Virus record (IMG/VR): IMGVR_UViG_3300001269_000001 | Location: 1 to 64,000 of that record | Strand: one strand, 5' to 3' | Source of the DNA: a virus | Length of the DNA stretch: 64,000 nt | Shown: positions 1-16,235 of the stretch, piece after piece | Numbering within the stretch: the first letter of the stretch is position 1 | Layout: the number at the start of each line of letters is the position of its first letter | Position numbers and translations under genes: made by a program | The notes under the pieces: model-generated | Told to the model about the DNA's origin: nothing | Database searches by the model: none | Seen by the model: only the letters and a program-made list of their open reading frames with translations

Positions 1-48
1 TTCTGATAAAATAAATTTTGCTAATTTTACTAAATTATTTTTGTTCAT
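1..48 (-). CDS. First 16 codons of a further CGTxGC-family paralog (my label); the rest lies off the left edge
   Basis: Reverse complement reads ATG..=MNKNNLVKLAKFILSE, the family N-terminus. nt 1-38 are identical to 2166-2203. Confidence 0.6.
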   Translation of the reverse strand, partial: MNKNNLVKLAKFILSE

Positions 49-105
49 AATTTTTATTATTAAATTAAAGATTTTTGGTTATTTAGATGTGGTGTTTAAT
101 ATGAT

Positions 106-381
106 TTAATCAATATCCAAGTAGGAGCTATCCCTTTCAATTATTTCAAATCTCCTAACCCCTGAAACAACAACCACACCACCACTACCCTTATACGTTA
201 TAATATCACCACCCTCTAGTGAGGTTAGTTCTGGTGAGTATTTACTTAAAACACTTACGGTGTCCTTGTCACTGTTATAGTAAACAACAGCTATTTTTGA
301 TTTGTATACAAGGCCCTTCCTAGAAGAGCATCCAAACACCACTAAATTTAGTAGCAAAATTATTTTTATGAGAATATTCAT
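106..381 (-). CDS. Small putative lipoprotein
   Basis: 91 aa. N-terminus MNILIKIILLLNLVVFGCSS is a hydrophobic signal ending in a lipobox-like VFGC. ATG start. It sits inside the paralog array. Confidence 0.5.
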   Translation of the reverse strand: MNILIKIILLLNLVVFGCSSRKGLVYKSKIAVVYYNSDKDTVSVLSKYSPELTSLEGGDIITYKGSGGVVVVSGVRRFEIIERDSSYLDID

Positions 382-402
382 TAATTATTTTTTTAGTAAG
401 GG

Positions 403-828
403 TTAATAGTTGTAAATTTTATTTGGGTTAATTTCTTCGTACTGACTTGTTGTTTTAGAAAAAACAACACCACCTTCAAGTAAATAAATAACTCTCTTAA
501 CAAAACCTTCACGAGTGTTGTCAGCATCACACCAACAACCATTAAATAGAAAACCCCACTGTGGGGTTTTAATAACCCCAAAAACTCTTTTAGAATATAC
601 ATAAAAGCATAACTCACCAAAACAGTCAAAATCACCCTCAACAACTTCCAAGCCTTTCACAAACGGTGCCCAACCTAAAGCACAACCAATTGTACCACAA
701 TCGTTTTTTGATTTGAAATCACAGGGGTCTCCACCACCAATAGACCTAAAGCTTTCCATGTTGAATTGATCATCAGTGACTTTTTCAAGTATAGACTTTG
801 CTAATTTTACTAGATTTTCTTTATTCAT
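403..828 (-). CDS. CGTxGC-family paralog (intact)
   Basis: 141 aa with MNKENLVKLAK, DCGTIGCALGWAPFV, DNTREGFVKRVIYLLEGG and INPNKIYNY. ATG start. Confidence 0.85.
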   Translation of the reverse strand: MNKENLVKLAKSILEKVTDDQFNMESFRSIGGGDPCDFKSKNDCGTIGCALGWAPFVKGLEVVEGDFDCFGELCFYVYSKRVFGVIKTPQWGFLFNGCWCDADNTREGFVKRVIYLLEGGVVFSKTTSQYEEINPNKIYNY

Positions 829-884
829 AATTTGTTGTTGTTTTTTTGATACAGTGCAAAGTTAACTATTATTTGGACTAAAAC
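829..884 (-). promoter_or_regulatory. Array spacer cassette with a -7-like box TAACTTTG (857-864 on the plus strand)
   Basis: Minus strand reads ..TAACTTTGCACTGTATCAAAAAAAACAACAACAAATT-ATG. It matches TAnnTTTG and is homologous to the other array spacers. Confidence 0.45.
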
Positions 885-1316
885 CTAATATTCGTAAATT
901 TTATTTGGGTCAATATTTTTGTACTGGCATGTTTTTCGTTTAAGATCATTACCACCTTCAATTAAATAAAGAACTCTCTTAACAAAGCCTTTTCTAGTAT
1001 TGTCTATTGTTGACCAACCACTATCGAATAGAAAATACCAACATAGTTCACCATCGTTAATTTCAAAAACTCTACTTGAGTACTTATAAAATATTAGCGC
1101 ACAATTACGTGGGTTAAATTCAGTTTCAACAGCCTCCAAGCCCGGTACAAAAGGAGACCAGCCCAATGCACAACCTACAGTCCCACAATCATTTATTGAT
1201 ACGAAGTCTTTAGAAAAGCCATAGATGTCACGCCTATATTTACCCATATTAAACTGGTTATCAGTAACTCCTGAAAGAATGTATTTTGCTAATTTTACTA
1301 AATTTTCTCTATTCAT
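885..1316 (-). CDS. CGTxGC-family paralog (intact)
   Basis: 143 aa with MNRENLVKLAKYIL, DCGTVGCALGWSPFV, DNTRKGFVKRVLYLIEGG and NIDPNKIYEY. Confidence 0.85.
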   Translation of the reverse strand: MNRENLVKLAKYILSGVTDNQFNMGKYRRDIYGFSKDFVSINDCGTVGCALGWSPFVPGLEAVETEFNPRNCALIFYKYSSRVFEINDGELCWYFLFDSGWSTIDNTRKGFVKRVLYLIEGGNDLKRKTCQYKNIDPNKIYEY

Positions 1317-1369
1317 AGTTTTGTTATTTTTTTTGATAGTACATAGGTAGTTATTATTTGACTGAAAAC
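1317..1369 (-). promoter_or_regulatory. Array spacer cassette (degenerate box TACCTATG, 1342-1349)
   Basis: Minus strand reads ..CTACCTATGTACTATCAAAAAAAATAACAAAACT-ATG. It shares the (A/G)TATCAAAAA core with the other spacers. Confidence 0.35.
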
Positions 1370-1804
1370 CTAGTAATTGTTTATTTTATTTGGATCAATA
1401 TTTTTGTAAGGGTGCTTTTTATTTATAGAAAGGTCTTTACAATCTTCCAAGAAACAAACAACCCTACTTACAAAACCTTCTCTGGAATTATCTATTTTAG
1501 ACCAACCACTATTGAAAAGAAAGCTCCATTGACAATCTTCCTCATCAACTCCAAAAATCCTGTTTGAGTACTTATGGAATACTAACCTACGACTCAACCG
1601 GGCGTAATCACTATCAATAGCCTCCAAACCCTCCACAAAGGGAGACCAACCCAAAGCACACCCTACAGTACCACAATCTTCTTTTGATTTGAAATAAGTA
1701 GAAAATCCATAATTGTCAAGCCTATACCTACTCATATTAAACTGATCATCAGCAACATTGGTGAAAATATATTTTGCTAATTTTACTAAATTTTCCTTAT
1801 TCAT
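1370..1804 (-). CDS. CGTxGC-family paralog (intact)
   Basis: 144 aa with MNKENLVKLAKYIF, DCGTVGCALGWSPFV, DNSREGFVSRV and NIDPNKINNY. Confidence 0.85.
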   Translation of the reverse strand: MNKENLVKLAKYIFTNVADDQFNMSRYRLDNYGFSTYFKSKEDCGTVGCALGWSPFVEGLEAIDSDYARLSRRLVFHKYSNRIFGVDEEDCQWSFLFNSGWSKIDNSREGFVSRVVCFLEDCKDLSINKKHPYKNIDPNKINNY

Positions 1805-1852
1805 AACTTTTGTTTTTGATAGTGTAAAGGTGTTGATTTTTTATCTTAAAAC
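1805..1852 (-). promoter_or_regulatory. Array spacer cassette (box CACCTTTA, 1825-1832)
   Basis: Minus strand reads ..CACCTTTACACTATCAAAAACAAAAGTT-ATG. Confidence 0.4.
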
Positions 1853-2203
1853 CTAATATTCGTAGATTTTATTTGGATCAATGTTTTCGTAATTACTTTT
1901 TGTTAGTTTAAAATTCTTACCACCTTCAATAAGATAAATAACCCTTTTTACAAAACCTTCTCTGGAATCTTTCTGAATAATTAGCAAACAACAGATCCCC
2001 TCCCCAATAGCAAAAATCACTACCAATAGTCTCCAACCCCGGAACAAAAGGTGACCAACCTAAAGCACAGCCTACAGTACCACAGTCGTTTTTTGAGAAG
2101 AATTCTATCTCAGACCTATCATAGTTTGATCTAAATTCTTCCATATCAAAATTCTCATCAGTAACTTCTGATAAAATAAATTTTGCTAATTTTACTAAAT
2201 TAT
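1853..2203 (-). pseudogene. Decayed CGTxGC-family unit with no start codon, no spacer and an internal out-of-frame deletion
   Basis: Two ORF fragments lie in different frames (1926-2144 and 1853-2047). The N-terminal remnant NLVKLAKFILSEVTDENFD has no ATG. YSER is joined directly to DSREGFVKRV with a frame change. Confidence 0.75.
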
Positions 2204-2566
2204 CTAGTATTCGTATATTTTATTTGGGTTAATATTTTTGTACTGATTTGTGGATAGTTCAAGATCATCACCACCTTCAATAAGGTATAAAACTCTTTTT
2301 ACAAAACCCTCTCTGGAATTATCTATTTTATACCAATCACTATTAAAAAGAAAGATCCAGCAATCGTCAATACACCCAATACCGAAAACCCTTTCTGAAT
2401 AATCATTAAAACCCAGACTACCTAGACAGCAAAAATCATATTCAATAGTTTCCAAGCCCGGTACAAAAGGAGCCAAACCTAATGCACACCCTACAGTTCC
2501 GCAACTCTCTTTTGAGAGGAATTTTAGATTAACCCCTAAACTAGGGTTAGATCTAAAATATTTCAT
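2204..2566 (-). CDS. N-terminally truncated CGTxGC-family paralog (possibly a pseudogene)
   Basis: 120 aa starting at the family-internal Met (..QFYM|KYFRS). It keeps SCGTVGCALGLAPFV, DNSREGFVKRVLYLIEGG and NINPNKIYEY. The upstream remnant LTNVSDEQFY is out of frame with ATG 2611-2613, across an A9 tract. Confidence 0.6.
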   Translation of the reverse strand: MKYFRSNPSLGVNLKFLSKESCGTVGCALGLAPFVPGLETIEYDFCCLGSLGFNDYSERVFGIGCIDDCWIFLFNSDWYKIDNSREGFVKRVLYLIEGGDDLELSTNQYKNINPNKIYEY

Positions 2567-2638
2567 GTAAAACTGTTCGTCAGAAACATTGGTGAGATTT
2601 GTTTTTTTTTCATTTGATATTGAATTGATGGTTAAATC

Positions 2639-3049
2639 CTAATATTCATAGATATTTTTTACATCTATTGTGTTAAAAGCAGTAGTTGACAGTTCATATC
2701 TGTCTAGACTACCTACTCTTAAAATAGCAATAAACCTTTTTACAAACCCCTCCTTGGTTCGGTCTCTAAAAAACCAATCACCATTAAATAAAAAATCAAA
2801 CAAACCCATACTATTAATTAGGTATGCATTCGGGCAATACTGACTAAAAAGTGATAACAGGTCTTCATCAACCCTGCTAAAATCAATACTTGACTTAAGT
2901 GGGTAAAAACCGAAAGTTTCATAAAAACCCGATATCTCTAGTCCTTTTTTATAAAACCTATCAGATGTAGTCTTAAAATGATGGTCTGAAATATTTTCAA
3001 AAATATACTTTGACAATAAAATAAGGCTTTTTTTATTTATACTGTTCAT
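2639..3049 (-). CDS. Divergent CGTxGC-family paralog lacking the Cys motif
   Basis: 136 aa. It keeps LILLSKYIFENISD, FDFLFNGDW..DRTKEGFVKRF and NTIDVKNIYEY. It has no DCGTxGCALGW block. Confidence 0.7.
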   Translation of the reverse strand: MNSINKKSLILLSKYIFENISDHHFKTTSDRFYKKGLEISGFYETFGFYPLKSSIDFSRVDEDLLSLFSQYCPNAYLINSMGLFDFLFNGDWFFRDRTKEGFVKRFIAILRVGSLDRYELSTTAFNTIDVKNIYEY

Positions 3050-3099
3050 AATTTTGTTCTTTTTGATAGTGTAAAGGTAGTGCTTATTTATCTTAAAAC
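3050..3099 (-). promoter_or_regulatory. Array spacer cassette (box TACCTTTA, 3072-3079)
   Basis: Minus strand reads ..CACTACCTTTACACTATCAAAAAGAACAAAATT-ATG. Confidence 0.4.
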
Positions 3100-3555
3100 C
3101 TAGTAATTATTTATTTTATTTGGGTCAATGTTTTTGTACTGGCATGTTTTTCGTTCAAGATCATTACCACCTTCAATTAAATAAAGAACCCTCTTAACAA
3201 AACCTTCTCTGGTATTATCTATTTCATACCAAAGACTATGAAAAATAAATTTCCAACAGTCTTCACTACAATCAATTCCAAAAACCCTTTCTGAGTATTC
3301 ATAAAATACCAACCTATTGAACCCTGCAAAGATCTCAATAAAATCATCTTCAACAACCTCTAACCCTTTTACGAAAGGAGACCAGCCTAATGCACAACCT
3401 ACAGTACCACAATCTTCTTTTGAGTAAAATTTTACATCACACTCTTCACCACTAGACCTAAAAAATTCCATATCAAATTGTTCGTCAGAAACCTCTGATA
3501 AAATATATTTTGATAATTTTACTAGATTCTTATTATTCATAGCTTTATATTTCAT
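3100..3555 (-). CDS. CGTxGC-family paralog (intact)
   Basis: Carries DCGTVGCALGWSPFV, DNTREGFVKRVLYLIEGG and NIDPNKINNY. The family-type start MNNKNLVKL is the ATG at 3540. The ATG at 3555 gives a 5-aa extension. Confidence 0.85.
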   Translation of the reverse strand: MKYKAMNNKNLVKLSKYILSEVSDEQFDMEFFRSSGEECDVKFYSKEDCGTVGCALGWSPFVKGLEVVEDDFIEIFAGFNRLVFYEYSERVFGIDCSEDCWKFIFHSLWYEIDNTREGFVKRVLYLIEGGNDLERKTCQYKNIDPNKINNY

Positions 3556-3895
3556 TTATAATCAACTTAACATCACCTGTTTTAAAATGGTAAGACCTCC
3601 AAATACCAGCCTTACCAATCCTTAAAACTACACCCCTAGTAAGTATATAGGGGTTCATATCAAACTCACCAACAGAGTTAGTGGATAATTTAAAGGTTGA
3701 ATAGCCAAGGGCTTCTTCAAAAGTGTATGCCATGATGGGGAAGGTTCTTTTAAAAGAACCCTCTTCACCATCTTCATAAATAACTTCTACCTCAAAAGAA
3801 CCCCGACACATACGGTATTCAAAATGTATCTCACCACACTTACTACACCAAAATCTATCGTCATTAAAATCTCTTGTTTTTATAGGGTGACTCAT
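3545..3895 (-). CDS. Hypothetical protein with a CxxC..C motif
   Basis: 116-aa ORF, tightly packed between neighbours. The CSKCGEIHFEYRMC segment is weakly zinc-ribbon-like. Confidence 0.55.
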   Translation of the reverse strand: MSHPIKTRDFNDDRFWCSKCGEIHFEYRMCRGSFEVEVIYEDGEEGSFKRTFPIMAYTFEEALGYSTFKLSTNSVGEFDMNPYILTRGVVLRIGKAGIWRSYHFKTGDVKLIINEI

Positions 3896-3897
3896 TG

Positions 3898-5073
3898 TTA
3901 TATGTAAAAGTCAACCTTTCTAATAGAAACATCTTCATCATTTGCAATAAGTAGGTATAATGAGTTATTATCCTTGTGCTTGACGATAGATACAACCCCT
4001 CCGTTAAACGCCTCATCAGATCCATAAAGAGGCTGGTTAAAGTTAAACTTGTACACATTATCACTTTTAAAGTCTATAACCAAAGACTCACTAAACCTAC
4101 CCGGGTTTGTAACCAAACAAACATCATCTTTTATGTGTGTTATCTTATGGTTAAATGGAACATTATGGTAGTCATAAAGGTATGGAACCCCATTATAATC
4201 AATCTTTGTTACTGGGGTTTCTGAGCTTATGTCAGTATAACACATAACATAATTACCGTTCGTAAGTGTTGCAAGAGATGTGTTAAAATCAAACTTACCG
4301 GGCTTACTAACCAATTTCTCAAGATGTGGGCCTGATCCAGTCTTAACCACTTCAATAAGGTTTGGTTTGTCGTTTGAGATCATATCCATCCTTGGGTTGA
4401 AGTTAGCTCCTGCAAAGTAAAATGAGCCATCTTCACTAATTTGAATGGAGTCAGAGAACCTTTGGTAAGGACTATTGTTAACACCACTTTCAAAGTTGAA
4501 GATAGGGTTCTTCCCATCAGGAAGTATTTCATTGAATTCAAGAGTTTTTTCATCCCTTTGTAGGATTGAATAACTCATAAGGTTTGGCTCATCATTCCAT
4601 TTCATACCCGGCCTCAAGTGCTTCCTACACTTCATGTAAACTCTTCCGTCAATGTCATCAAAAGATACATAGCTAAATCCAGCACCTTTTATATCCTCTG
4701 GGTTTATTTTAACCATTTCGATATCACCATCGCCTCTTATAGAAGTTGTTGAAATATACCCGTTAAATTCTGCACTATTGTGCATATTACCGACAAGATA
4801 CAGCCTGTACTGTGGATCTATATAAACACCAAATGTGTTATGGATATCTTCCAGATAATCTTCTTCTAGGTAAATCTCTGAAATCAACAAATCATCTCTA
4901 TATATTAATACATAGTGAGAACCATTCTTTAGAGTAATTACAGTTGCTAAGTAATTATCCCTAAGGGCTATGTTTTGTGATATTGAGTTTAGCGTTGTTG
5001 ATAAAAGGTCTCTCTTAAGAACCCTAGAAAACTCTAATGTTTTTTGTTTTGTTATAAATGGCAGTCTACTCAT
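3898..5073 (-). CDS. Hypothetical protein (beta-rich)
   Basis: 391-aa uninterrupted ORF with an ATG start. No motif recognised. Confidence 0.7.
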   Translation of the reverse strand: MSRLPFITKQKTLEFSRVLKRDLLSTTLNSISQNIALRDNYLATVITLKNGSHYVLIYRDDLLISEIYLEEDYLEDIHNTFGVYIDPQYRLYLVGNMHNSAEFNGYISTTSIRGDGDIEMVKINPEDIKGAGFSYVSFDDIDGRVYMKCRKHLRPGMKWNDEPNLMSYSILQRDEKTLEFNEILPDGKNPIFNFESGVNNSPYQRFSDSIQISEDGSFYFAGANFNPRMDMISNDKPNLIEVVKTGSGPHLEKLVSKPGKFDFNTSLATLTNGNYVMCYTDISSETPVTKIDYNGVPYLYDYHNVPFNHKITHIKDDVCLVTNPGRFSESLVIDFKSDNVYKFNFNQPLYGSDEAFNGGVVSIVKHKDNNSLYLLIANDEDVSIRKVDFYI

Positions 5074-5135
5074 AAAAATTATTTAAAATGTTTAATTTAA
5101 AACTAATAAAAACCTTGTTCACTATTATATATGGA

Positions 5136-5705
5136 CTAATCCATATTATTTACTGAAACTGATACAGTGTTGAATGGAGCACATACAGATGGGCTATAAA
5201 ATGTTGAAGCCTTTAGAGCATTTATTAAAAAGGTTTCAATATCATCCTCAGACTTGGGTGGGTTGATGTTTTGTGAAAACATAGATCCATAGGCGTAAGA
5301 GCTTCCAGAACCAACACTCTCAAAGTTCATCAAGCTTTCACCAACTTGAAAATCAGAGTCTATTTTAAATAGCCTGCCTGAATAACCAGCCAAAAAACAC
5401 CCGCCAGATTCAACATTATTTGAAGAGCTAAGAAAACCACCCTCCTTAAGTGATTTTCTAACTTCGTCAATAAATAGGGTGTTCATATACTCTTCAACAG
5501 TTATTGAAGGCCTATGTTGAGGTGGTTTAAAGGAATATTTCAAAATATTTATAATTCTAAAAGATGATGTTGCACCAAAGGCAAAATCACCATTAACCCA
5601 AACCTTAGAGTCCTTTCTAAGGGTTATTCGGTTTGGGTTAAACCCAGCACTGTCACCAGCTATCTTAACTACTTTTCCGTTTGAAAAACCTACTATACAA
5701 GTCAT
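5136..5705 (-). CDS. HslV/proteasome-beta-like Ntn (T1-type) peptidase
   Basis: MTCIVGFSNGKVVKIAGDSAG aligns by eye with HslV TTIVSVRRNGHVVIAGDGQ, with Thr at position 2. Later ..FESVGSGSSYAYG aligns with HslV ..IAIGSGGPYAQ. Confidence 0.6.
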   Translation of the reverse strand: MTCIVGFSNGKVVKIAGDSAGFNPNRITLRKDSKVWVNGDFAFGATSSFRIINILKYSFKPPQHRPSITVEEYMNTLFIDEVRKSLKEGGFLSSSNNVESGGCFLAGYSGRLFKIDSDFQVGESLMNFESVGSGSSYAYGSMFSQNINPPKSEDDIETFLINALKASTFYSPSVCAPFNTVSVSVNNMD

Positions 5706-5777
5706 ACCATACTTTTTTTACAAAAATAATTAAAAAAACATCTATACCTAACGTTTATCTATTTTTATTCAGAGTTA

Positions 5778-6170
5778 TCATAATTTACTTCTATTTAAAT
5801 CAGATAAAGTTTTTTCTTTATGACAGTCTAGACATAGTGTTTGAAAATTCTCTAAAGAACACCCTCCACCTCCTAAGTGTACTGGTTTTATGTGGTCGGC
5901 CTGCCAGCTTTCTGACTCAACCCCACACATATGGCAGAAGCCAAAGTCCACTTTGAACAATTCATCACGGATTACACCAATATCACCTTTTATTACAGCA
6001 AACTTTCTGTAAGACTTGTCACTACAATTTTTAGAGAACCACTTTCTTTTACGTTTTGGAAGCTCTCTACCGCACCCACAAGCACAAAAACCCTCAACTT
6101 TTGGAAACATACTGGTCATTGAAAGACCTTTCTGATACCTTTTGTACCTATCTATTTTAAAGGACTTCAT
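5778..6170 (-). CDS. HNH endonuclease
   Basis: CHMCGVESESWQADHIKPVHLGGGGCSLENFQTLCLDCHKEKT is a classic HNH motif with flanking Cys pairs. Confidence 0.85.
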   Translation of the reverse strand: MKSFKIDRYKRYQKGLSMTSMFPKVEGFCACGCGRELPKRKRKWFSKNCSDKSYRKFAVIKGDIGVIRDELFKVDFGFCHMCGVESESWQADHIKPVHLGGGGCSLENFQTLCLDCHKEKTLSDLNRSKL

Positions 6171-6678
6171 GTGGCTCTATATCTATTTTTCTGTAAAAGT
6201 ATGAGTTCATCTCCATTCTTACATTGTCAAACTTATCCTCATGCTTGTACTTGGTACCACGAATTATCTTTTTTGAGTCTTTACATATATAGCTCTTACG
6301 TACCCAAATTCTTAGGTACCCATCCTTATCACAATCCATTTCTAAACCTTCAAAGCTACACCCTCTAGCCTTGCAGTAATGCTTCATGTATTCAAAGCTA
6401 GGGAAATCTAAATCAATGAAGCAGCCAACGTACTCAGCAAATAAAGACATTCTCTCAGCACCACCACCCTTTTTCCAATAAACAGGGCCTTTAGTGTCAC
6501 AAACCTGAGATAGTTTGTCCAACACTTGTGATTTAAGGTGGTAAAACCCTTCACTATAAACAATTACTAGCTTTTCTAGGTTTAAGTGATTAGCAGCTTT
6601 TACAAGCAAATCTTCAAGATTTAATTTAATTATCATACCATTAGTTTTTATAGTACCAAAGCTTGTTTCTAAGTTCAT
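6157..6678 (-). CDS. Hypothetical protein
   Basis: 173-aa ORF. The internal ATG at 6636 (MIIKLNLEDL) would avoid overlapping the amidase gene. Confidence 0.6.
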   Translation of the reverse strand: MNLETSFGTIKTNGMIIKLNLEDLLVKAANHLNLEKLVIVYSEGFYHLKSQVLDKLSQVCDTKGPVYWKKGGGAERMSLFAEYVGCFIDLDFPSFEYMKHYCKARGCSFEGLEMDCDKDGYLRIWVRKSYICKDSKKIIRGTKYKHEDKFDNVRMEMNSYFYRKIDIEPHEVL

Positions 6679-7264
6679 CCAAAGGGAATGCTGGCCCGGG
6701 GTCTGTTTTCCTACCTACAGATATCTCCTCATGCCCAACAACACTTGAGATAGACGGGTAGTGATCTATTAGTGATTGGCAAAGTTGAAAGCATTTTTCA
6801 ATCTGAATGTACGTGTATTTATGCCAAAATTCTTCATGATCTTCACTGCTATTCCTATGAACCGCCTTAACAACCTCATTATCAGAATAACCACCCCCAA
6901 ACCAAGATCTATAATAGTCATCACTAATCTTTTCAAGTTTACCTGCATTGTCAATTTCAATGCCTATAGAAAAGTTATTGTAGTTTTTTCTACCTAAGAA
7001 ACTGCTTTTACCAGCATGCCAAGCAATTTTGTCAAAGGGTACACACTGGTAAATATGACCACTTCTATCCAGTACAATATGGGCAGAAGCCCTAACCTTA
7101 TCATTACAAAGATGTTTTGCCGATGATATTCCATCAGAACCACCTGTATAGTGTATGACTATTGAATCTGGGCTTGACCTAAACCTCTTATAGTTCTTAT
7201 GGCATTCAAAGTTTGTAACCTCTGAATTTGATTTAAGCCTATTGTTTAAATTACTTATTATCAT
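6641..7264 (-). CDS. N-acetylmuramoyl-L-alanine amidase (Amidase_2/PGRP-type endolysin)
   Basis: IVIHYTGG, AHIVLDRSGHIYQCVPFDKIAWHAGKS, NNFSIGIEIDNAG and VVGHEEI..KTDPGPAFP. It overlaps the holin gene by 4 nt. Confidence 0.85.
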   Translation of the reverse strand: MIISNLNNRLKSNSEVTNFECHKNYKRFRSSPDSIVIHYTGGSDGISSAKHLCNDKVRASAHIVLDRSGHIYQCVPFDKIAWHAGKSSFLGRKNYNNFSIGIEIDNAGKLEKISDDYYRSWFGGGYSDNEVVKAVHRNSSEDHEEFWHKYTYIQIEKCFQLCQSLIDHYPSISSVVGHEEISVGRKTDPGPAFPLDELRNKLWYYKN

Positions 7265-7719
7265 AAATATTCATCCTTTCTGTCTTTCTTTTTTAAAAAA
7301 GATATGTCAGCATTCTTAGTTAGATTGTGTGCAACCTTTTCCATAGACCTTCCAATAACATAACCTCCAAGACCTAACTCCAAAAGATCCCAAAATTTTT
7401 CAGGAAGTGTTTCACTAACCTTTATTGCATTTGGGAAAAATGCAGGTTGAAGAAAGTATGTGTAAAAAACTATAAATGCAAATGAAACCATTACGACCGG
7501 CCTCCAATTTCTTTGCAAAGCGTTTCCTTTAACCTCAGCAAGTGCAACCTTATGTTGAGCATCTTGTAAAGATGAAAGTGACTCTAAGACTATTGAAGAA
7601 AGGTCTGTCTTAGCTTGGTTCTTCTCATCGTCTGTTGAGGTGATATTGTCAATCACCTTTCCAGCTCGGTCTATTATTTTAGACCCCTCCTTATTTAGAA
7701 GTTTTCCTATTATACCCAT
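7261..7719 (-). CDS. Holin (resembles the GTA/3-TM holin family)
   Basis: Soluble N-terminal part with TSTDDEKNQ..AQ..ALAEV, then NWRPVVMVSFAFIVFYTYFLQPAFF and a second hydrophobic segment. It lies immediately upstream of the amidase. Confidence 0.6.
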   Translation of the reverse strand: MGIIGKLLNKEGSKIIDRAGKVIDNITSTDDEKNQAKTDLSSIVLESLSSLQDAQHKVALAEVKGNALQRNWRPVVMVSFAFIVFYTYFLQPAFFPNAIKVSETLPEKFWDLLELGLGGYVIGRSMEKVAHNLTKNADISFLKKKDRKDEYL

Positions 7720-7722
7720 TTT

Positions 7723-8187
7723 TTAAGTTTTAATACCATAGATATCGTTAACATTAACTTTTTCATATATACCAATCATCTTTTCTGAAAAAGAGAATCT
7801 TGTCCCACTGTATTCAGAAAAGTACTCTTCACCATTTTTTAATAAAAAAACAACCCTTTTGATAAAGCCTTCTTTTGTATTATCAAAAGAAGCCCATCTT
7901 GAGGAAAAAAGGAAGGCCCATGCTAATGAATGCTTAGGTTTTCCTAAAAACTGCACTATATGATCATATCTACTCATAGAATTCAAACATGGCTTAAATA
8001 CATCCCTTAAAATTCCAAGTGGGCACTTTTTCAGAAAACCACCTATAAAAACCTCATAAGTATTCATGTCAAAACTTCCATCAGGTGTGTTTTCAAATAT
8101 GTACTTTGCTAATTTTACTAAATTTTCTTTATTTATCACTCTCTCTGATAGGTTAAAGTAAAAAAATATCTTCTTCAAAAACTTCAC
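7723..8187 (-). CDS. Divergent CGTxGC-family paralog lacking both the Cys motif and the canonical ATG
   Basis: INKENLVKLAKYIFENTPDGSFDM, WAFLFSSRWASFDNTKEGFIKRVVFLLKNG. The family ATG is ATA here. The possible starts are GTG 8187 or GTG 8139, and 8139 fits the family N-terminus better. Confidence 0.55.
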   Translation of the reverse strand: MKFLKKIFFYFNLSERVINKENLVKLAKYIFENTPDGSFDMNTYEVFIGGFLKKCPLGILRDVFKPCLNSMSRYDHIVQFLGKPKHSLAWAFLFSSRWASFDNTKEGFIKRVVFLLKNGEEYFSEYSGTRFSFSEKMIGIYEKVNVNDIYGIKT

Positions 8188-8620
8188 TGTTGTAAATTAC
8201 AAACAGCTCGTGTAAGTTGCCAATCTTATTAACCAACTCCTCACCAAAGGACAGGAGAAACAAAACCCTTTTCACAAAACCTTCTCTGGAATTGTCAATA
8301 AAAGACCACTCATCGCTAAACAAAAAGCTCCAAGTTGACTTGACTGACTTAAAATCAACTCCAAAAACTCTTTTTGAGTATTTAATAAATGATAGTGCCT
8401 TATATTCATCACCATCTTCTGGTAGGTTCTCTAAACCCGGTACAAAAGGAGCCCAACCTAAAGCACACCCTATGGTGCCACAATCTTTTTTTGAATAGAA
8501 TTCTACCTCAGAGCTATCATAGTTTGTTCTAAATGTCTCCATATCAAACTTCCCATCATCAACTTCTGACAAAATAAACTTTGCTAATTTTACTAAATTA
8601 CTCTTATTTTCTTCGTTCAT
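8153..8620 (-). CDS. CGTxGC-family paralog with a divergent C-terminus
   Basis: 155 aa with NLVKLAKFILSEV, DCGTIGCALGWAPFV and DNSREGFVKRVLFLL. The usual NIDPNKIYEY tail is replaced. Confidence 0.8.
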   Translation of the reverse strand: MNEENKSNLVKLAKFILSEVDDGKFDMETFRTNYDSSEVEFYSKKDCGTIGCALGWAPFVPGLENLPEDGDEYKALSFIKYSKRVFGVDFKSVKSTWSFLFSDEWSFIDNSREGFVKRVLFLLSFGEELVNKIGNLHELFVIYNSEVFEEDIFLL

Positions 8621-8672
8621 AATCTTTGTTTTTTTTTGATAGTGTAAAGGTAATGTTTATTTGACTGAAAAC
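8621..8672 (-). promoter_or_regulatory. Array spacer cassette (box TACCTTTA, 8645-8652)
   Basis: Minus strand reads ..CATTACCTTTACACTATCAAAAAAAAACAAAGATT-ATG. The spacer plus the adjacent 3' gene end resemble 1317-1400. Confidence 0.4.
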
Positions 8673-9080
8673 CTAGTAATCGTAGATTTTATTTTCATCA
8701 ATTTTTCTGTAAGGGTGTTGTTCAGTTATTTCAAAATCCTCACCACCCTCCAAAAAATAGATAACTCTGTTGTCAGTATTAGACCAATAACCTCCAAAAA
8801 GAAATTGCCAATTAGACACACGTTCAGTTCCAAAAACTCTTTTAGAGTATATTTCAAAATCTAATGCCCCGTTTTTATAAATATCTGAATCAACAACCTC
8901 CAACCCTTTCACAAAAGGAGCCCAACCTAATGCACACCCTACAGTACCGCAATCATTTGGTGAATAGAATTTCTTTAAAGAATCACCCTCATCAGATCTA
9001 AAATGCTTCATGTTAAACTGTTCGTCAGAAACCTCTGAAAGAATGTATTTTGCTAATTTTACTAAATTATCTTTGTTCAT
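8673..9080 (-). CDS. CGTxGC-family paralog with an in-frame loss of the TREGFVK block
   Basis: 135 aa with MNKDNLVKLAKYIL and DCGTVGCALGWAPFV. It reads ..SNTDN|RVIYFLEGG where the others have DNTREGFVKRV. Its ATG overlaps the end of the upstream unit. Confidence 0.75.
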   Translation of the reverse strand: MNKDNLVKLAKYILSEVSDEQFNMKHFRSDEGDSLKKFYSPNDCGTVGCALGWAPFVKGLEVVDSDIYKNGALDFEIYSKRVFGTERVSNWQFLFGGYWSNTDNRVIYFLEGGEDFEITEQHPYRKIDENKIYDY

Positions 9081-9528
9081 ATTCGTAAATTTTATTTGGA
9101 TTAATGTGCTTATAATTATTTGTTGTTAATTCAAAGTTCTTACCACCTTTCAAAAAGTATACAACCCTTTTTACAAACCCTTCTCTGGTGTTGTCAATTT
9201 CAGACCACCCGCACCCAAAAATAAAACCCCAAGAAATATTTATAAAATAAGAATTCCCAAAAACCCTTTCTTTATAATAATAAAAACTTAAACGTTTACT
9301 ATCATGGGTCTCACTTTCAATAAAATCACCCTCAACAGCCTCCAAACCTTTCACAAAAGGTGCCCAACCTAAAGCACAACCAACTGTACCACAATCGGTT
9401 ATTGATTTGAAGATTTTTTTTAAACCCTTGTCACCTCTGCAAAAACTCATATCAAATTGCTCATCAGAAACTTCTGACAAAACAAACTTCGCTAGTTTTA
9501 CTAAATTTTCCTTGTTTTCTTTTTTCAT
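9067..9528 (-). CDS. CGTxGC-family paralog (intact, 3' end fused to the next unit)
   Basis: 153 aa with ENLVKLAKFVLSEV, DCGTVGCALGWAPFV, DNTREGFVKRVVYFLKGG and INPNKIYEY. It then reads through EQR into the next unit's start. Confidence 0.85.
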   Translation of the reverse strand: MKKENKENLVKLAKFVLSEVSDEQFDMSFCRGDKGLKKIFKSITDCGTVGCALGWAPFVKGLEAVEGDFIESETHDSKRLSFYYYKERVFGNSYFINISWGFIFGCGWSEIDNTREGFVKRVVYFLKGGKNFELTTNNYKHINPNKIYEYEQR

Positions 9529-9537
9529 ATTTTTGTT

Positions 9538-9999
9538 TTAATTTACACAAAGTCTGTAGTCTATTTTAAAAGACATCACAAGAGACTCTGCATGTAGGTC
9601 AAATAAGCAACAGTTTTTTGGAACCATTTTTATATAATAGCTACCATCTTCATCATTGACACCATAATCAATTGAAAAGTCTCTAAATAAAACCTTAAAT
9701 CTTGAAGATATTTCAATATCACTTACAGTTTTTTGTTCCAAGTAGCTTTTCTTTAGAACAAAAGAGAGGAAACCTTTTACAAACCTTGATATTAAAAGGT
9801 CACTATTTTTAGTGTCTAAAAGCTCAACAGCTTCGCTTTCATGAAAAACATTATCTATTATTAGTAAGATAAGTTCATCAGAAAACAAAGAGCCACTGCT
9901 TTTAACAAGATGCTTTCTAATATCACTTTCTGTGAAGAGGTTATAACCTAAGGGAACCTCCTCCACTTCTTCTAAAGAACTATAAACTATCATTTCCAT
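9538..9999 (-). CDS. Hypothetical protein
   Basis: 153-aa ORF with an ATG start, 9 nt upstream of the first array unit. Confidence 0.65.
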   Translation of the reverse strand: MEMIVYSSLEEVEEVPLGYNLFTESDIRKHLVKSSGSLFSDELILLIIDNVFHESEAVELLDTKNSDLLISRFVKGFLSFVLKKSYLEQKTVSDIEISSRFKVLFRDFSIDYGVNDEDGSYYIKMVPKNCCLFDLHAESLVMSFKIDYRLCVN

Positions 10000-10156
10000 T
10001 TTTTATATCTCTAAGTAATGGTTTGTACTCTGTCTCTGACCTCCACTCCCAACAACTTATCATAGCGGAAAACTCTTCAACACTATTCTTAAGCATATCG
10101 AGGCCTAGCCAGAACATTTCAGAATTGCTTTTAAATTTTTCTTCATTTTCGCTCAT
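9980..10156 (-). CDS. Small hypothetical protein (58 aa, below the ORF-track cutoff)
   Basis: Hand translation gives MSENEEKFKSNSEMFWLGLDMLKNSVEEFSAMISCWEWRSETEYKPLLRDIKNGNDSL. It follows a promoter-like box and overlaps the next gene by 20 nt. Confidence 0.35.
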   Translation of the reverse strand: MSENEEKFKSNSEMFWLGLDMLKNSVEEFSAMISCWEWRSETEYKPLLRDIKNGNDSL

Positions 10157-10190
10157 AAATATTTTGTTTTGTTTTAATTTTCTTGAAGTA

Positions 10191-10198
10191 CAAAGTTA
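10191..10198 (-). promoter_or_regulatory. -7-like box TAACTTTG
   Basis: Minus strand reads CTAACTTTGTACTTCAAG.., about 35 nt upstream of ATG 10156 and just downstream of a terminator. Confidence 0.4.
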
Positions 10199-10207
10199 GA
10201 AAAAATA

Positions 10208-10240
10208 AACAAAAAAAGCAACACATTTCTGCATTGCTTT
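10208..10240 (-). terminator. Intrinsic terminator after the beta-helix gene
   Basis: Minus strand reads AAAGCAATGCA-GAAA-TGTGTTGCTTT followed by TTTTGTTTATTTTT. That is an 11-bp stem (two G-U pairs), a GAAA loop and a T-run. Confidence 0.6.
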
Positions 10241-10260
10241 AAAAAAAAATAAACAACCTA

Positions 10261-11688
10261 CTACTTCAAATAATCTATTATTGACTTTAACTGAGATTTT
10301 CTAACCTTTATTGTAACTTCAACGTAATCCTCATCATCGTTTGGGCAGTCACAATCACCACCACCTTGTTTAGAAGCGTTGTATCCATATCCTAAGTTAC
10401 TCCAATACTCATCCCTGACACTTTCATGGGTTATTGATGGCTTAGGGTGTATTGAGGGTTTGGACGCTTCAACAGACGTTTCTGGCCTTCCAGAAAAGTT
10501 CCTGTTAGTATACTCAAAATACCTATTTTGATCGCTGTCTGTATGAACGTTTTTTGAAAGAATATCCACCTCAAGATCAGCACACTTAATAACAGGGTAG
10601 GTTGAAGTATCAACTCCATAAACGTGAAGACCATCTATTTCAATAGATCCTGTACCAAACCTGTTAACCATTTTTAACAGGTCTTGATAATGGGCTTCAC
10701 TTGGATCTGTTGAGTTTAAAATATTTTGCCTTATTTCCTCATACTTTTTGTGCCTTCCAATAAATATGGAACTTTCTTCTGGGTCTACCAGAACATTGTC
10801 CTTAATTTTTAAGTTACCAGTTTGAAGGTACATGTTAAACTGGCCAGCACCAACAACTATGTTTTTTTCAAAAACACCGGCTTTAGACTCTCCAATTTGA
10901 ACAGCGTTTTGTTGAACATGACCCTCTGTGTAGTCAATACCTGAGTTAATTATTGTATTGTTTCTGATAATACAGTTATTGGCATGTGCTATTTGTATTG
11001 CCTCAAGACCAGAGTTAACAAACATACAATTTTCAACGACAACCTCACCAGACTCGTGGCTAGGCTCTTTAGTTGATCCAAAATACAACTGCTCTTTTGA
11101 GCAACTACCCTCTTCTATTGTCTGGGTTTGTCCTGTCTTACCTGAAACAGTCCTTGGTGCCTTAGGCTTCCAAAACAAGCAGTCCTTTATGTAAATATCA
11201 CCATTAGACCTGTAAATAGGATGATGGTGGTGGCTTTCTGGGTAACGAACACCTTCAAGTCTGTATGGGTAGTCCATGTAAAACTCAAGAGCTGAATCAT
11301 TTGCAGGAGGGTTTGTTTTAGCACTAATTGTTGCAACCCTAAAATCTAGCAATGAAAACTCAACATTCTCAACAGTAAGGTGGGAGGAGAACAGCTCAAA
11401 TTCCAAATGTATTTGGAAATCAATGGACTTTTTACCGTCAGAGTTTGTCAGGCCTCTAAATACAATATTCTGGCAGTTAAAAACTTTAACAGTGTAGCTG
11501 TGGGCGCTTGTAAATGTAGCTACACCCTCATCAGGCCCTTCTATAACTAAAGGGTTCTCTTTAGTTGCTACTATATTCCTAAAGATCATCCCGCTATACT
11601 CACCAGCACCTAGCTTCAACAACCTTTCTTCACCTATATTTGTGGGGTCTAACCTCCTATAACTTGTACTTGGAAATAATGTTATCAT
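10261..11688 (-). CDS. Right-handed parallel beta-helix repeat protein (putative polysaccharide depolymerase/lyase)
   Basis: 475 aa with repeated beta-helix-like turns (NCQNIVFRGL, VENCMFVNSG, NNCIIRNNTIINSG, FEKNIVVGAG). Confidence 0.5.
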   Translation of the reverse strand: MITLFPSTSYRRLDPTNIGEERLLKLGAGEYSGMIFRNIVATKENPLVIEGPDEGVATFTSAHSYTVKVFNCQNIVFRGLTNSDGKKSIDFQIHLEFELFSSHLTVENVEFSLLDFRVATISAKTNPPANDSALEFYMDYPYRLEGVRYPESHHHHPIYRSNGDIYIKDCLFWKPKAPRTVSGKTGQTQTIEEGSCSKEQLYFGSTKEPSHESGEVVVENCMFVNSGLEAIQIAHANNCIIRNNTIINSGIDYTEGHVQQNAVQIGESKAGVFEKNIVVGAGQFNMYLQTGNLKIKDNVLVDPEESSIFIGRHKKYEEIRQNILNSTDPSEAHYQDLLKMVNRFGTGSIEIDGLHVYGVDTSTYPVIKCADLEVDILSKNVHTDSDQNRYFEYTNRNFSGRPETSVEASKPSIHPKPSITHESVRDEYWSNLGYGYNASKQGGGDCDCPNDDEDYVEVTIKVRKSQLKSIIDYLK

Positions 11689-11713
11689 ATATTTTATTTA
11701 ATTGTTTTTAAAA

Positions 11714-12118
11714 CTAAGAGATGCTGTCAATCCTTACAAAAGGAACATTACCTCTATCTATGTCACCCCTAAGTATTTTAGACAGGTTTACAGTTTTTGT
11801 GGATTTAATGAATACATACTCAACCTTTAAAATTCGACCCACTATATTTGGTAGCTTTAGCTTAATCCTATCCCAAATAGTCTTAGGCTCTTTTCTAATA
11901 AACTCAACATCAAAACTATAATTTGATGTGTATATATTGGACATAAACTCAGCACTAATCATCCCACCCAAACTATTTGCAACCTCATAAATGTTTAAGT
12001 CTATATCTTGGCTAATGTTATAAAGAGGTGTGTCTACTAAGCATCTTAAACACTCTCTTTTAAAGACCTCTGACTTAATTTTTAAGTTATCTGATACAGC
12101 TCTTCTGTGGCCTATCAT
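11714..12118 (-). CDS. Hypothetical protein
   Basis: The ORF-track start at 12238 is a TTG. The first ATG in frame is at 12118 (MIGHRRAV..). Confidence 0.55.
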   Translation of the reverse strand: MIGHRRAVSDNLKIKSEVFKRECLRCLVDTPLYNISQDIDLNIYEVANSLGGMISAEFMSNIYTSNYSFDVEFIRKEPKTIWDRIKLKLPNIVGRILKVEYVFIKSTKTVNLSKILRGDIDRGNVPFVRIDSIS

Positions 12119-12290
12119 TTTTTTAATATGTTTAAAATAAAAGAAAAAAACTTCATTAAAATGACTAGAAACGGGTACATTGGTATGTAAAAGGTTTTTG
12201 AGGCCAACCCTGACCTTACAAAACCTTCTGAAAACCAAAGAAATAAGCAGGAAAATATTTGAACGAGCAGTAACACTAAAAAAGTATTCA

Positions 12291-12683
12291 TTACTTTAAT
12301 TTCTTTTTAGTGTCGATGTGGCTTAAACTTTTCTCAAACCTTCTCTTATCACTGTCAGGAAGCTTTGGCATTATTTCCTTTTTAAAGTGAAGCTTTGACC
12401 TGTTACTTCTCTCCTTTTGCTTTTTCTTTAAAAGGTCTTTTTCACTAACAGTAGTACCTCCATCCATGTTTAACAGGTGAGGTGTTGTTGGAACTCTTTT
12501 CCAAGAAGTTCCAAGTGAAATTTTTTCAAGACATCCAGACCCTTCTAAAATACATGGGCAGGTAGACTCGTTGCAAGATGTTTTAATTTGAGTTTCTTCA
12601 CTCGGATTATCAACCTCACTCATTGAGTGGAATATGTCCTCCTGCTTCAAGCAAAGAGGACATTCATAAATGTATGTTGGCAT
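12291..12683 (-). CDS. FmdB-type zinc-ribbon protein (putative regulator)
   Basis: N-terminus MPTYIYECPLC..IFHS matches the FmdB-family opening MP.YEY.C..CG..FE. A second Cys cluster is CNESTCPC. The start lies 2 nt after the sigma-factor stop. Confidence 0.6.
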   Translation of the reverse strand: MPTYIYECPLCLKQEDIFHSMSEVDNPSEETQIKTSCNESTCPCILEGSGCLEKISLGTSWKRVPTTPHLLNMDGGTTVSEKDLLKKKQKERSNRSKLHFKKEIMPKLPDSDKRRFEKSLSHIDTKKKLK

Positions 12684-12684
12684 A

Positions 12685-13518
12685 TTAAGATAATTTTGTT
12701 TTTAATTTGTTCATGGCACTATTTAGCAAGTATAGGTATTCATTTCTTGAAATGCCTAATGATTGCTGTATAGACTTAACAGACCTAACTGTATGGTCTT
12801 GTAGGCCAAACTTTAAGGTTATGACATCTCTTTCTTTCTTATTTAAACTTGATATTGAATCAGATAGTCTTGATGATGACTCAGAGTTTATAACTTTGAA
12901 ATCTGTTTCCATACTGTCAGATGTTTCAACTCCTTCAAAATTACTTGAAATTGTATTGTCACCAACCATGTAGCTTTGGTAGTACTCTAAAGCCTCCCTT
13001 ATATCGCTGTATGAGAATTGAAGTCTAGAGTTAACCATAACCTCCTCTACAGTAGGGGTTCTGTTGTTTCCTTGCTCAAATGTATCTATAAAAGACATTA
13101 CTTTGGCTATTAAAGCAATTCTGTTTATTGGAATTCTGACAGTTCTAGAATTTTCGGAAATTGCTGAACGAACCTTAAGCCTAACCCACCAAATAGCGTA
13201 AGATATAAACCTAACCTCATTCTTAAGAGTATACCTTTTAGCAGCTTCAATAAGCCCCAAATTACCCTCATTAATTAAATCCTCAACTGGAACCCCCATT
13301 GAACTATACTGCTTGGCAACACTAACAACAAACCTGAGGTTAGACTCTATTATTTTGTTAAATAATAGTCTGTACTCATCAGAACTAGGGCTTAATGATT
13401 CCATAGCCTTAAAATAAAGCTTTTCCTCATCTATGGACATTAAACTTTTCGACCTTATATCAGTAAAGTAGCTAGACAAAACCCTACCTTTATCTACTAT
13501 ATTGTTTTTTAACACCAT
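12685..13518 (-). CDS. Sigma-70-family RNA polymerase sigma factor with regions 1.2, 2, 3 and 4
   Basis: NLRFVVSVAKQY..DLINEGNLGLIEAAKRY..RFISYAIWWVRLKVRSAI..RTVRIPIN covers regions 2.1-2.4. ERDVITLKFGL..IQQSLGISRNEYLYLLNSAMNKLK covers region 4.2. Confidence 0.9.
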   Translation of the reverse strand: MVLKNNIVDKGRVLSSYFTDIRSKSLMSIDEEKLYFKAMESLSPSSDEYRLLFNKIIESNLRFVVSVAKQYSSMGVPVEDLINEGNLGLIEAAKRYTLKNEVRFISYAIWWVRLKVRSAISENSRTVRIPINRIALIAKVMSFIDTFEQGNNRTPTVEEVMVNSRLQFSYSDIREALEYYQSYMVGDNTISSNFEGVETSDSMETDFKVINSESSSRLSDSISSLNKKERDVITLKFGLQDHTVRSVKSIQQSLGISRNEYLYLLNSAMNKLKTKLS

Positions 13519-13519
13519 A

Positions 13520-14008
13520 CTATATTGTTTTTGTATATTTGTAGTGAGCTATAAGAGTTGCATCAACAATCCCGTCATGAGGAACTGTTGACCTTTTAGT
13601 TGCTAAAAAATCGTAACTTGGATATAGCCTTCTAGCAGAATTTAGAGAGGTTTTTTTAGTATCTCTGGGAACTTTATCGCTATTAATCCATACATTTTTT
13701 TGCCATTCTTTTGGGGGAACCATTTCAAATGGAATCTTTGATTGTCTAACAACAAGTTCTGTTATGCCTACAGACTTACCAAACCCAAAGTTTGATTTTG
13801 CAGAAGCCCCCGGTATACTATGAACGTCCTCCAAAACTATAGTGGAACCTCCACTAATATGGTTTAGGTAGTTCAAAATTCCTAAAAACTCACTACCATC
13901 TATTAGATTTACTTTTTTAAAGAGTGGAACTCTGAAATAAGTCAGAGCTCCACTTTTACTTATCATAGATATTCCACCCTTGTTACCCGGGTCAATTCCA
14001 ATTACCAT
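13520..14008 (-). CDS. RuvC-like Holliday junction resolvase
   Basis: MVIGIDPGNKGG, VLEDVHS and HDGIVDATLIAHY show the RuvC-fold acidic-residue pattern at the expected spacing. Confidence 0.7.
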   Translation of the reverse strand: MVIGIDPGNKGGISMISKSGALTYFRVPLFKKVNLIDGSEFLGILNYLNHISGGSTIVLEDVHSIPGASAKSNFGFGKSVGITELVVRQSKIPFEMVPPKEWQKNVWINSDKVPRDTKKTSLNSARRLYPSYDFLATKRSTVPHDGIVDATLIAHYKYTKTI

Positions 14009-14075
14009 TAATCATTTTTCTTTATTGAAATACAAAGTAAAGAAAAAAAAACAACAAAGTCAAGTGGCTATCTAA

Positions 14076-14888: not shown

Positions 14889-14933
14889 ATTATTGTTTAC
14901 GTTTTATAATTATTATTTTAAAAAAGTTGTTTA

Positions 14934-15296
14934 CTAGATCATCTCATAGGTCACAGATGGAACCTGCTTAACTTTAACAAAGCTCAAAGATGCTGGTAGG
15001 GACTCGTAATAGTCTTCACAATTTACATCTACAATGCAGCAACAAGCATAATAGTTATCCTTAAACCCAAATACAAAAAGACCATGATTATACCATTTTG
15101 ACTCATCACAAACAATTTTAACAGTCCTTGTTTTTGAAAAACTATCAACGAATTTATTTGTTGATCTTTCAAAAGTCTCCCATTGATCCTTTGACAGGTC
15201 TTCTTCCCAGTCAACACTTCTTTGCACAATCTCTTGATCTTCAATTTGTTGAAGAAACTCCTCAAATTCCTTTACATTATCTATTTTCTTTGACAT
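14934..15296 (-). CDS. Hypothetical protein with an acidic N-terminal half
   Basis: 120-aa ORF abutting the ThyX-like stop. Confidence 0.6.
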   Translation of the reverse strand: MSKKIDNVKEFEEFLQQIEDQEIVQRSVDWEEDLSKDQWETFERSTNKFVDSFSKTRTVKIVCDESKWYNHGLFVFGFKDNYYACCCIVDVNCEDYYESLPASLSFVKVKQVPSVTYEMI

Positions 15297-16214: not shown

Positions 16215-16235
16215 GCTTTGTTTTTTAATGCTTTG

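Follow-up and report, generated by a model that had tools for sequence, protein, structure and literature searches.

A tandem multigene family of an undescribed Cys-loop protein in an uncultured tailed phage

The first 9,528 nucleotides (nt) of IMG/VR record IMGVR_UViG_3300001269_000001 carry, on the minus strand, a tandem array of genes for one small protein of ∼140 amino acids (aa), the CGTxGC family, which is named here after its conserved Cys-x4-Cys loop. The stretch that was analyzed, referred to as the window, comprises positions 1 to 64,000 of the record. Its source is an uncultured phage of Bacteroidota-type bacteria, a tailed myovirus of ∼97 kb. Tailed phages are tightly packed and, to our knowledge, seldom contain more than a few paralogs, and arrays of this size are rare. 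The locus raises the question of how so many copies of one gene arose and what they do for the phage. The array is an old birth-and-death multigene family that formed in situ, and not a recent gene accordion. The best explanation overall, to which we give somewhat less than an even chance, is that this old lineage-specific birth-and-death family encodes host-directed accessory proteins with a Cys-loop site.

The array is divided into two blocks (positions 1–3555 and 7723–9528), whose open reading frames (ORFs) belong to a single family. An earlier note on this DNA had reported this two-block layout with 12 minus-strand units, and all 12 are present at coordinates that are exact or within a few codons. 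Its spacing of 488 nt between the starts at 828, 1316 and 1804 is exact (432 + 56 and 435 + 53 nt), and its estimate of ∼5 kb for the array corresponds to 4,648 nt of coding sequence, or 4,992 nt including spacers. The unit boundaries mostly agree as well, but two likely starts are at 3540 instead of 3555 and at a GTG at 8139 instead of 8187, matching the public gene calls P0001 and P0025. A profile hidden Markov model (HMM) built from relatives recognizes 11 window units, as stop-to-stop ORFs, with E-values of about 1e-20 to 1e-56, and it matches the 3′ fragment of the pseudogene at 1853–2203 with an E-value of 4e-5. The units and spacers are as follows.

1–48, minus strand: start fragment of a unit (first 16 codons, MNKNNLVKLAKFILSE) that runs off the window start; 38-nt exact match to 2166–2203
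403–828, minus strand: intact canonical unit of 141 aa (P0003; HMM E 1e-53)
829–884, minus strand: conserved spacer TAGGTTTT...CTTTGCACTGTATCAAAAA, a candidate regulatory element
885–1316, minus strand: intact canonical unit of 143 aa (P0002), its 3′ 59 nt near-identical to unit 3100–3540
1317–1369, minus strand: conserved inter-unit spacer
1370–1804, minus strand: intact canonical unit of 144 aa (P0004)
1805–1852, minus strand: conserved inter-unit spacer
1853–2203, minus strand: pseudogene unit without a start codon, joined directly to the stop of the preceding unit, with a frameshifting 71-nt internal deletion
1926–2144 and 1853–2047, minus strand: the two ORF fragments of the pseudogene
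2204–2566, minus strand: N-terminally truncated unit of 120 aa (P0012), ∼9 first-helix codons deleted
2639–3049, minus strand: divergent unit of 136 aa (P0015), CGTxGC loop lost (HMM E 7e-20)
3050–3099, minus strand: conserved inter-unit spacer
3100–3540, minus strand: intact canonical unit of 146 aa (P0001), longest ORF to 3555, modelled with AlphaFold2
7723–8139, minus strand: divergent unit of 138 aa from GTG (P0025), CGTxGC loop lost, longer C-terminus, abutting the holin gene at 7261–7719
8153–8620, minus strand: unit of 155 aa (P0008), canonical for ∼125 aa, then a divergent C-terminus
8621–8672, minus strand: conserved inter-unit spacer
8673–9080, minus strand: unit of 135 aa (P0010) that has lost 7 aa (TREGFVK) and has no spacer, with a 14-nt overlap between its start and the end of the upstream unit
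9067–9528, minus strand: intact canonical unit of 153 aa (P0005), which opens block 2 and recurs in an independent Logan assembly

The shared motif blocks named in the earlier note are all visible in a MAFFT alignment of ten units. They are NLVKLAKYIL..V.D.QF(D/N)M, DCGT(V/I)GCALGW(A/S)PFV.GLE, YS.RVFG, W.FLF..W..DN(T/S)REGFVKRV.YL.EGG and Y.NI(D/N)PNKIY.Y. Six units are essentially canonical (403–828, 885–1316, 1370–1804, 3100–3540, 8153–8620 and 9067–9528). The C-G-T-(V/I)-G-C-A-L-G loop is kept in nine of the 11 scorable units and is lost from 2639–3049 and 7723–8139, both of which are intact ORFs that retain the C-terminal half (W.FLF..W..D.T.EGF.KR). An ORF of at least 120 aa is retained by 10 of the 11 complete units. 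Pseudogenes had been proposed for the array, and the unit at 1853–2203 is indeed dead through its missing start codon and its deletion. No in-frame start precedes the truncated unit at 2204–2566; just upstream of it, an A9 run follows an ATG that is out of frame.

The array extends beyond the window. A search of 5.8 billion proteins with the family profile identified at least 21 gene calls of the family on the same 96,731-bp JGI contig. Eleven of the 21 calls are window ORFs, and the remaining ten (P0006, P0007, P0009, P0011, P0013, P0014, P0016, P0017, P0027 and P0062) are located outside the window, where truncated, internally deleted and frameshifted units are also found, as is one unit fused to a 190-aa tail. 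The family occupies roughly 9–10 kb, or about one-tenth of the contig. At 35 other independent loci, the copy number within ∼10 kb is one in most cases and four at most; compared with these, the at least 21 copies here are as unusual for a tailed phage as had been suggested.

An array of this kind could be an assembly artefact, that is, a collapsed or expanded repeat or a strain chimera. An independent Logan assembly (run SRR2835694) corresponds to window positions 9052–19528 without a single mismatch in 10,477 bp; this contig includes the first unit of block 2, which is therefore independently confirmed. The Logan contig stops at 9052, within a 34-nt exact repeat common to unit 885–1316 (9035–9068 and 1271–1304), and similar sites occur in most units. 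Because the break falls in an exact repeat, short-read assemblers evidently meet repeated k-mers here, so that the unit order could be wrong and the order and number of units given here are provisional. However, the units differ from one another by 26–42% in DNA, and each has its own indels and lesions; they therefore cannot be copies of one sequence, and an artefact is extremely improbable. Although synonymous divergence is saturated elsewhere, many units agree exactly over 20–38 nt in the stretch that encodes NLVKLAK(Y/F)IL; strong AT-biased codon choice may explain this identity.

The copies in the window are old. Their pairwise DNA identity is 58–74%, synonymous sites are saturated (pairwise dS 0.7–2.4), and the ratio of nonsynonymous to synonymous substitution (dN/dS, or ω) is 0.16–0.51. 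Purifying dN/dS values that persist after synonymous saturation, together with the 10 of 11 ORFs kept, indicate long-term selection on the proteins. By region, ω is 0.11–0.15 in the N-terminal helix and in the Cys-loop block, 0.31–0.42 in the C-terminal blocks and 0.39–0.82 in the variable segments. The hypervariable segments described in the earlier note are real, with a proportion of nonsynonymous differences (pN) of 0.47–0.54 that is near saturation, but with ω below one they give no direct sign of the arms race that had been read into them. Across the whole family, these segments vary and are prone to indels, and both structural models have low confidence there (see below); they therefore look like low-constraint loops rather than a demonstrated arms-race signature. 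The idea of a conserved scaffold with variable segments is thus supported, except that the loops are not specific to this array.

In a neighbour-joining tree, the contig copies are monophyletic, with a bootstrap value of 73/100 for the canonical copies and 47/100 when the two divergent copies are included. The contig copies also have a C-terminal motif (IDPNKIYEY) that is absent from other family members. Because the copies form one clade and share a private C-terminal motif, the expansion happened in this lineage. Such a clade of paralogs from one genome, in which intact and selected copies are mixed with decayed ones, is what defines a birth-and-death family. The 3′ ends of units 885 and 3100 share a 59-nt tract that has a single mismatch and contains two pairs of exact repeats (916–940/3131–3155 and 942–974/3157–3189); outside it, the two units are 72% identical. 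This tract points to occasional conversion or recombination between units.

The earlier note had compared the array to a gene accordion. In the poxvirus K3L accordion, a small viral gene is likewise amplified head-to-tail, but its copies are recent, near-identical and unstable in number, whereas the units here have diverged to synonymous saturation. With copies this old, under purifying selection and with no near-identical recent copy among them, the array is not an accordion in the poxvirus sense. A diversity-generating retroelement target was also considered and was rejected, as no reverse-transcriptase family is found among the 58 window ORFs of at least 90 aa and the differences between copies involve every base and the full length of the gene.

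Many units stand as genes of their own, each with a start codon and an A-rich leader that lacks a Shine–Dalgarno sequence. A conserved spacer of 48–56 nt, TAGGTTTT(A/C)AG..AAATAA...CTTTACACTATCAAAAA, precedes five of the units. The mean identity of the spacers is 0.72, compared with ∼0.42 at the synonymous sites of the same genes (proportion of synonymous differences, pS, 0.48–0.72). Since the spacers are more similar than the synonymous sites, they are constrained, and the inter-unit spacer is probably a regulatory element. The per-unit promoters of the earlier note are only partly borne out: the spacer is conserved before five units, but sigma-70-type and Bacteroidota-type promoter patterns are not enriched, and other units lack any spacer. 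The promoter-like motif of the spacer is not reused elsewhere in the window, no conserved RNA structure was found in the spacers, and there were no tRNA or Rfam matches.

The family had been left unassigned in the earlier note, and it stays unassigned after searches of Pfam, NCBIfam, PADLOC, PHROGs, the PDB and Foldseek databases. An exhaustive HMMER search of 1.84 billion representatives of 50%-identity clusters identified 1,679 family cluster representatives at E ≤ 1e-3 and 419 at E ≤ 1e-10; among the matches listed, there is no Pfam domain and no name beyond "hypothetical protein". The window copies match nothing in Pfam or PHROGs. For 110 distant relatives, nothing above chance was found in Pfam, NCBIfam or PADLOC, and three of the 110 match the unannotated phrog_889 and phrog_1122 marginally (E about 4e-4). 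A sequence-profile search of the PDB gave no match, no fused domain is recognizable in ten longer family members, no further divergent members were found in the window, and no signal peptide or membrane segment is found in the sequences. Literature searches returned nothing on the CGTxGC family or on comparable phage arrays.

AlphaFold2 models were obtained for a window protein (pLDDT 89, pTM 0.85) and a distant member (pLDDT 86, pTM 0.83). Both models contain a mainly helical domain in which the Cys loop is located just before a short helix. A Foldseek comparison of the two models with the PDB yielded nothing below E = 3, and a comparison with BFVD yielded only weak matches to uncharacterised phage proteins. 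Two alignments of 110–122 distant relatives show no variation at C44 and G52. R117 does not vary in one alignment and is at least 90% conserved in the second, and C49, G45, G48, P55, R28, Y82, F100 and W104 are at least 90% conserved. The C-x4-C pair, which had been described as invariant, is so at its first Cys, but the second Cys is near-invariant (at least 90%) in the ∼120 distant relatives. Conservation of the Cys pair in distant relatives argues for a shared chemical site over a pure binding scaffold.

Several known classes were compared with the family and rejected. A thioredoxin-fold oxidoreductase is not indicated, because the motif is C-x4-C rather than C-x-x-C and there is neither a thioredoxin-type match in Pfam nor a fold match in the PDB. 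A low-molecular-weight phosphatase or ArsC-type protein (C-x5-R) is contradicted by Ala at +6 and Leu at +7, with no Arg, and by mainly helical models without a PDB neighbour. DNA-mimic anti-restriction proteins (ArdA, Ocr) do not fit, given that PF03230 is not matched and the isoelectric points (pI) of the paralogs range from 4.6 to 9.1 rather than being uniformly acidic. A known anti-phage defence protein was dismissed on a single chance-level PADLOC match among the 110 members.

Pfam DUF6197 (PF19698), an uncharacterised phage and prophage family of ∼100 aa, looks suggestive to the eye, with its motifs following one another in an identical order. Both families exhibit an N-terminal helix (DL.A.R.LL in DUF6197 and NL.KLA..L in the CGTxGC family), an aromatic residue followed by (A/Y)R, a variable loop, two Cys residues followed by (A/L)(L/M)G, and an NDT/DNT motif that opens a long helix. 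In contrast to the C-x4-C of the CGTxGC family, which has no His pair, DUF6197 contains C-x-C plus H-x-H. The relationship was rejected at an hhalign probability of 1.7–2%, and neither the 110 relatives (E ≤ 0.01) nor six distant members with three contig copies (E ≤ 10) match DUF6197 or any other Pfam family. No solved structure or functional literature was found for DUF6197. A DUF6197 gene (locus L053, 3539–3847) is located 4 kb from a 250-aa CGTxGC family member in the Sphingopyxis indica chromosome CP076394, where the surroundings are T4-like (rIIB, endonuclease VII).

The family is almost entirely phage-borne, with only two loci in 185,579 cellular genomes. The cultured carriers are about a dozen large myoviruses, in which all copies are annotated as hypothetical. 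They infect Chryseobacterium (MA9V-1, genes MA9V1_011–013, and MA9V-2), Agrobacterium (OLIVR5 and OLIVR6) and Rhizobium (LG08, IG49 and IC12), Alishewanella (Slickus01 and Slicko01), Ochrobactrum (ORM_20) and Synechococcus (BUCT-ZZ01). Their proteins belong to the same family as the array (tblastn E to 1e-10 with a window protein as query and 2e-22 with a distant member), but each genome has 1–3 copies instead of at least 21, and the IDPNKIYEY motif is missing. In MA9V-1 and MA9V-2, three adjacent family copies are followed by a fourth gene of similar size.

The relatives usually lie within runs of small unknown ORFs of early or accessory type. One relative overlaps an ArdA-like gene by 8 nt, with RadC nearby, and others are found near Lar, near DNA methylases, or near PRPP-synthetase-like and NAMPT-like genes. 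The commonest neighbour family occurs at 3 of 36 independent loci and no neighbour is conserved; the gene therefore works alone. In other viral contigs, a second family of ∼200 aa, unrelated to the CGTxGC family, stands in tandem directly upstream of a CGTxGC homologue at locus L008 (1606–3495; also at L010, L032, L020 and L029) and comprises 42 ORFs in three independent loci. The homologue at L008 is itself split by a frameshift into two overlapping ORFs (3515–3993), as are those at L010, L032 and L033 in independent assemblies; the split reflects either a pseudogene that has become fixed or a genuine frameshift site.

The window is organized into a minus-strand gene block (1–16238) that contains the array and a plus-strand block (from 16860) of helicase, primase, terminase, portal, protease, major head and baseplate genes. 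Genes for a beta-helix protein, a sigma factor, a resolvase and ThyX are located upstream of block 2, and the following genes lie between the two array blocks.

5136–5705, minus strand: HslV-like peptidase
5778–6170: HNH endonuclease
6641–7264: amidase
7261–7719: holin

The nearest cultured relative is the Chryseobacterium phage MA9V-3 (103 kb), which matches 29 of the 58 window proteins at 25–55% identity in mostly colinear order. MA9V-3 has no family copy anywhere in its genome, and the collections contain no phage closely related to that of the window. The absence of the family from this colinear relative indicates that the family is accessory and that its expansion is lineage-specific.

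Other features of the window stand beside the array. A 91-aa ORF at 106–381 (minus strand), inserted between two array units, has a lipoprotein-type signal peptide (MNILIKIILLLNLVVFGC) and no Pfam or PHROG match; it could encode a spanin-like or exclusion lipoprotein. The strand block of the array also encodes a sigma-70-type sigma factor (12685–13518, minus strand) in addition to the peptidase of the HslV family listed above. The strand-switch region at 16239–16859 has the lowest G+C content of the window (0.29) and contains AT-rich tandem repeats (16592–16741); it may be a replication origin or a region of divergent promoters. A Pfam overview of the window ORFs of at least 90 aa, taken as a set, revealed ADP-ribosyltransferase exoenzyme, patatin-like phospholipase, NUDIX hydrolase and GDSL lipase domains, all of which have possible host-modifying functions.

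How the array arose and what it does can be put together as follows. One ancestral gene for a phage-restricted globular domain of ∼140 aa was duplicated head-to-tail many times. The copies then diverged for a long time under purifying selection, while some decayed by deletion, truncation or frameshift and units occasionally recombined with each other. A need that is both strong and diversified is implied by a phage that devotes about one-tenth of its genome to 21 or more selected copies of a single small protein. We tentatively infer, at a level well short of an even chance, that the proteins are soluble, cytoplasmic, host-directed accessory factors built around the Cys-x4-Cys loop. They would act on the host as takeover or counter-defence factors and would not be parts of the virion or of the replication machinery. 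The near-invariant C-G-T-(V/I)-G-C loop, which caps a helix, may form a shared chemical site for ligand or metal binding or a reactive thiol pair, perhaps with a contribution from the DNT motif and from conserved Arg and Tyr residues. The flanking low-constraint loops, which differ between copies, could give each isoform a different specificity, and the two copies without a Cys loop might be non-catalytic binders or partners. The spread of pI among the paralogs fits surfaces that have diversified.

A number of observations weigh against a host-directed role. Residues that do not vary among phages of Bacteroidota, Proteobacteria and Cyanobacteria would be expected of a conserved enzyme more than of host-specific binders. 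Every region has ω < 1, so that nothing points directly to an arms race, although the test is weak and saturation would mask such a signal. The array flanks a lysis cassette near the beta-helix gene and is not placed in a recognisable early module. Sigma-70-type promoter matches occur at chance level (42 seen and 41 expected), and the Bacteroidota promoter pattern TTTG/TAnnTTTG is not enriched. The set of binders or inhibitors against host defence that the earlier note had floated stays speculative: the anti-restriction-type neighbourhood of some relatives, its one support, is suggestive, but it has neither background statistics nor a conserved partner and counts on this side for that reason.

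The conserved residues could instead belong to a small enzyme, or to a cofactor, metal or redox protein of phage metabolism, perhaps with a thiol-disulfide or metal site that works on nucleotides or some universal small molecule; the array would then serve mainly dosage or minor substrate variants instead of host-specific targets. The near-invariant Cys pair, the Gly-rich loop and the Arg and Tyr residues are retained in distant phages of many host phyla, and the whole-gene signal is one of purifying selection. ThyX and other metabolic genes neighbour the array in the window, a thioredoxin gene lies near one relative, and dosage would be expected to benefit stoichiometric proteins. However, two intact copies have dispensed with any Cys loop, and the family is missing from MA9V-3 and from most phages, so its function is not a core one. 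Amplification for dosage predicts near-identical copies, unlike those observed, and neither the fold nor the sequence matches any known enzyme. We consider this explanation unlikely.

Less probable still is a largely neutral or selfish array, in which a unit of gene plus spacer spreads by unequal recombination at the shared 20–38-nt stretches with little benefit to the phage. Exact repeats of this length do occur at the equivalent place in many units, pseudogene, truncated and fused units exist, and the G+C content of the array is slightly below that of the rest of the window. The purifying dN/dS after saturation and the 10 of 11 complete units that keep an ORF contradict neutrality, the unit contains no nuclease or transposase, and carrying ∼10% of useless DNA would presumably be costly under packaging limits. 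The location of the array beside lysis genes and a tail-spike-like beta-helix gene would suit proteins that are packaged in or decorate the virion, like the internal proteins of T4, and are delivered with the DNA against host defences. T4 capsid-targeting sequences are cleaved in an L-x-E context, which the I-L-S-E at the end of the highly conserved N-terminal helix resembles here, and the two copies of OLIVR5 come after terminase and baseplate-hub genes. Yet the helix is modelled as part of the fold (pLDDT 95–98), and the L-x-E context does not hold across the family. PHROGs offer no structural annotation, the array and the structural module are on opposite strands, and most relatives lie among early-type genes. 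A virion role is accordingly quite improbable.

Host-directed accessory proteins, the explanation preferred here, would have counterparts in other large viruses. The MGF360/505 families of African swine fever virus (ASFV) are likewise old, diverged tandem paralogs with pseudogenes, a lineage-specific copy number, an accessory status and birth-and-death evolution, but the proteins and hosts are unrelated, and the carrier is a large eukaryotic DNA virus rather than a ∼97-kb tailed phage. A role in host range or immune evasion has been shown for the ASFV families, whereas any such role of the CGTxGC array is putative. The host-takeover clusters of SPO1-like and Twort-like phages also consist of many small, packed genes in a large myovirus; the head module of the window phage resembles this group, and some array units have their own upstream element. 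In these clusters, however, the genes are unrelated to each other, in contrast to the paralogs of the array.

The array is a striking phage instance of a known pattern, the viral multigene family; its building block is a protein family that is undescribed and has no structural match. A phage family of 1,679 clusters with neither annotation nor a structural relative is a substantial piece of viral dark matter. Its expansion into the array marks it as functionally important and provides a natural panel of variants for mapping the residues that matter, and cultured carriers with 1–3 copies, such as MA9V-1 and OLIVR5, open the family to experiment. It is a rather unlikely but far-reaching prospect that the CGTxGC domain represents a new fold and a new class of effectors against host immunity or for host takeover, in which the Cys-loop site would bind or modify some conserved molecule of the host or of signalling, with a panel of 21 isoforms whose loops would each match a different host variant. 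If true, this panel would be to a phage what the immune-evasion multigene families are to large eukaryotic viruses.

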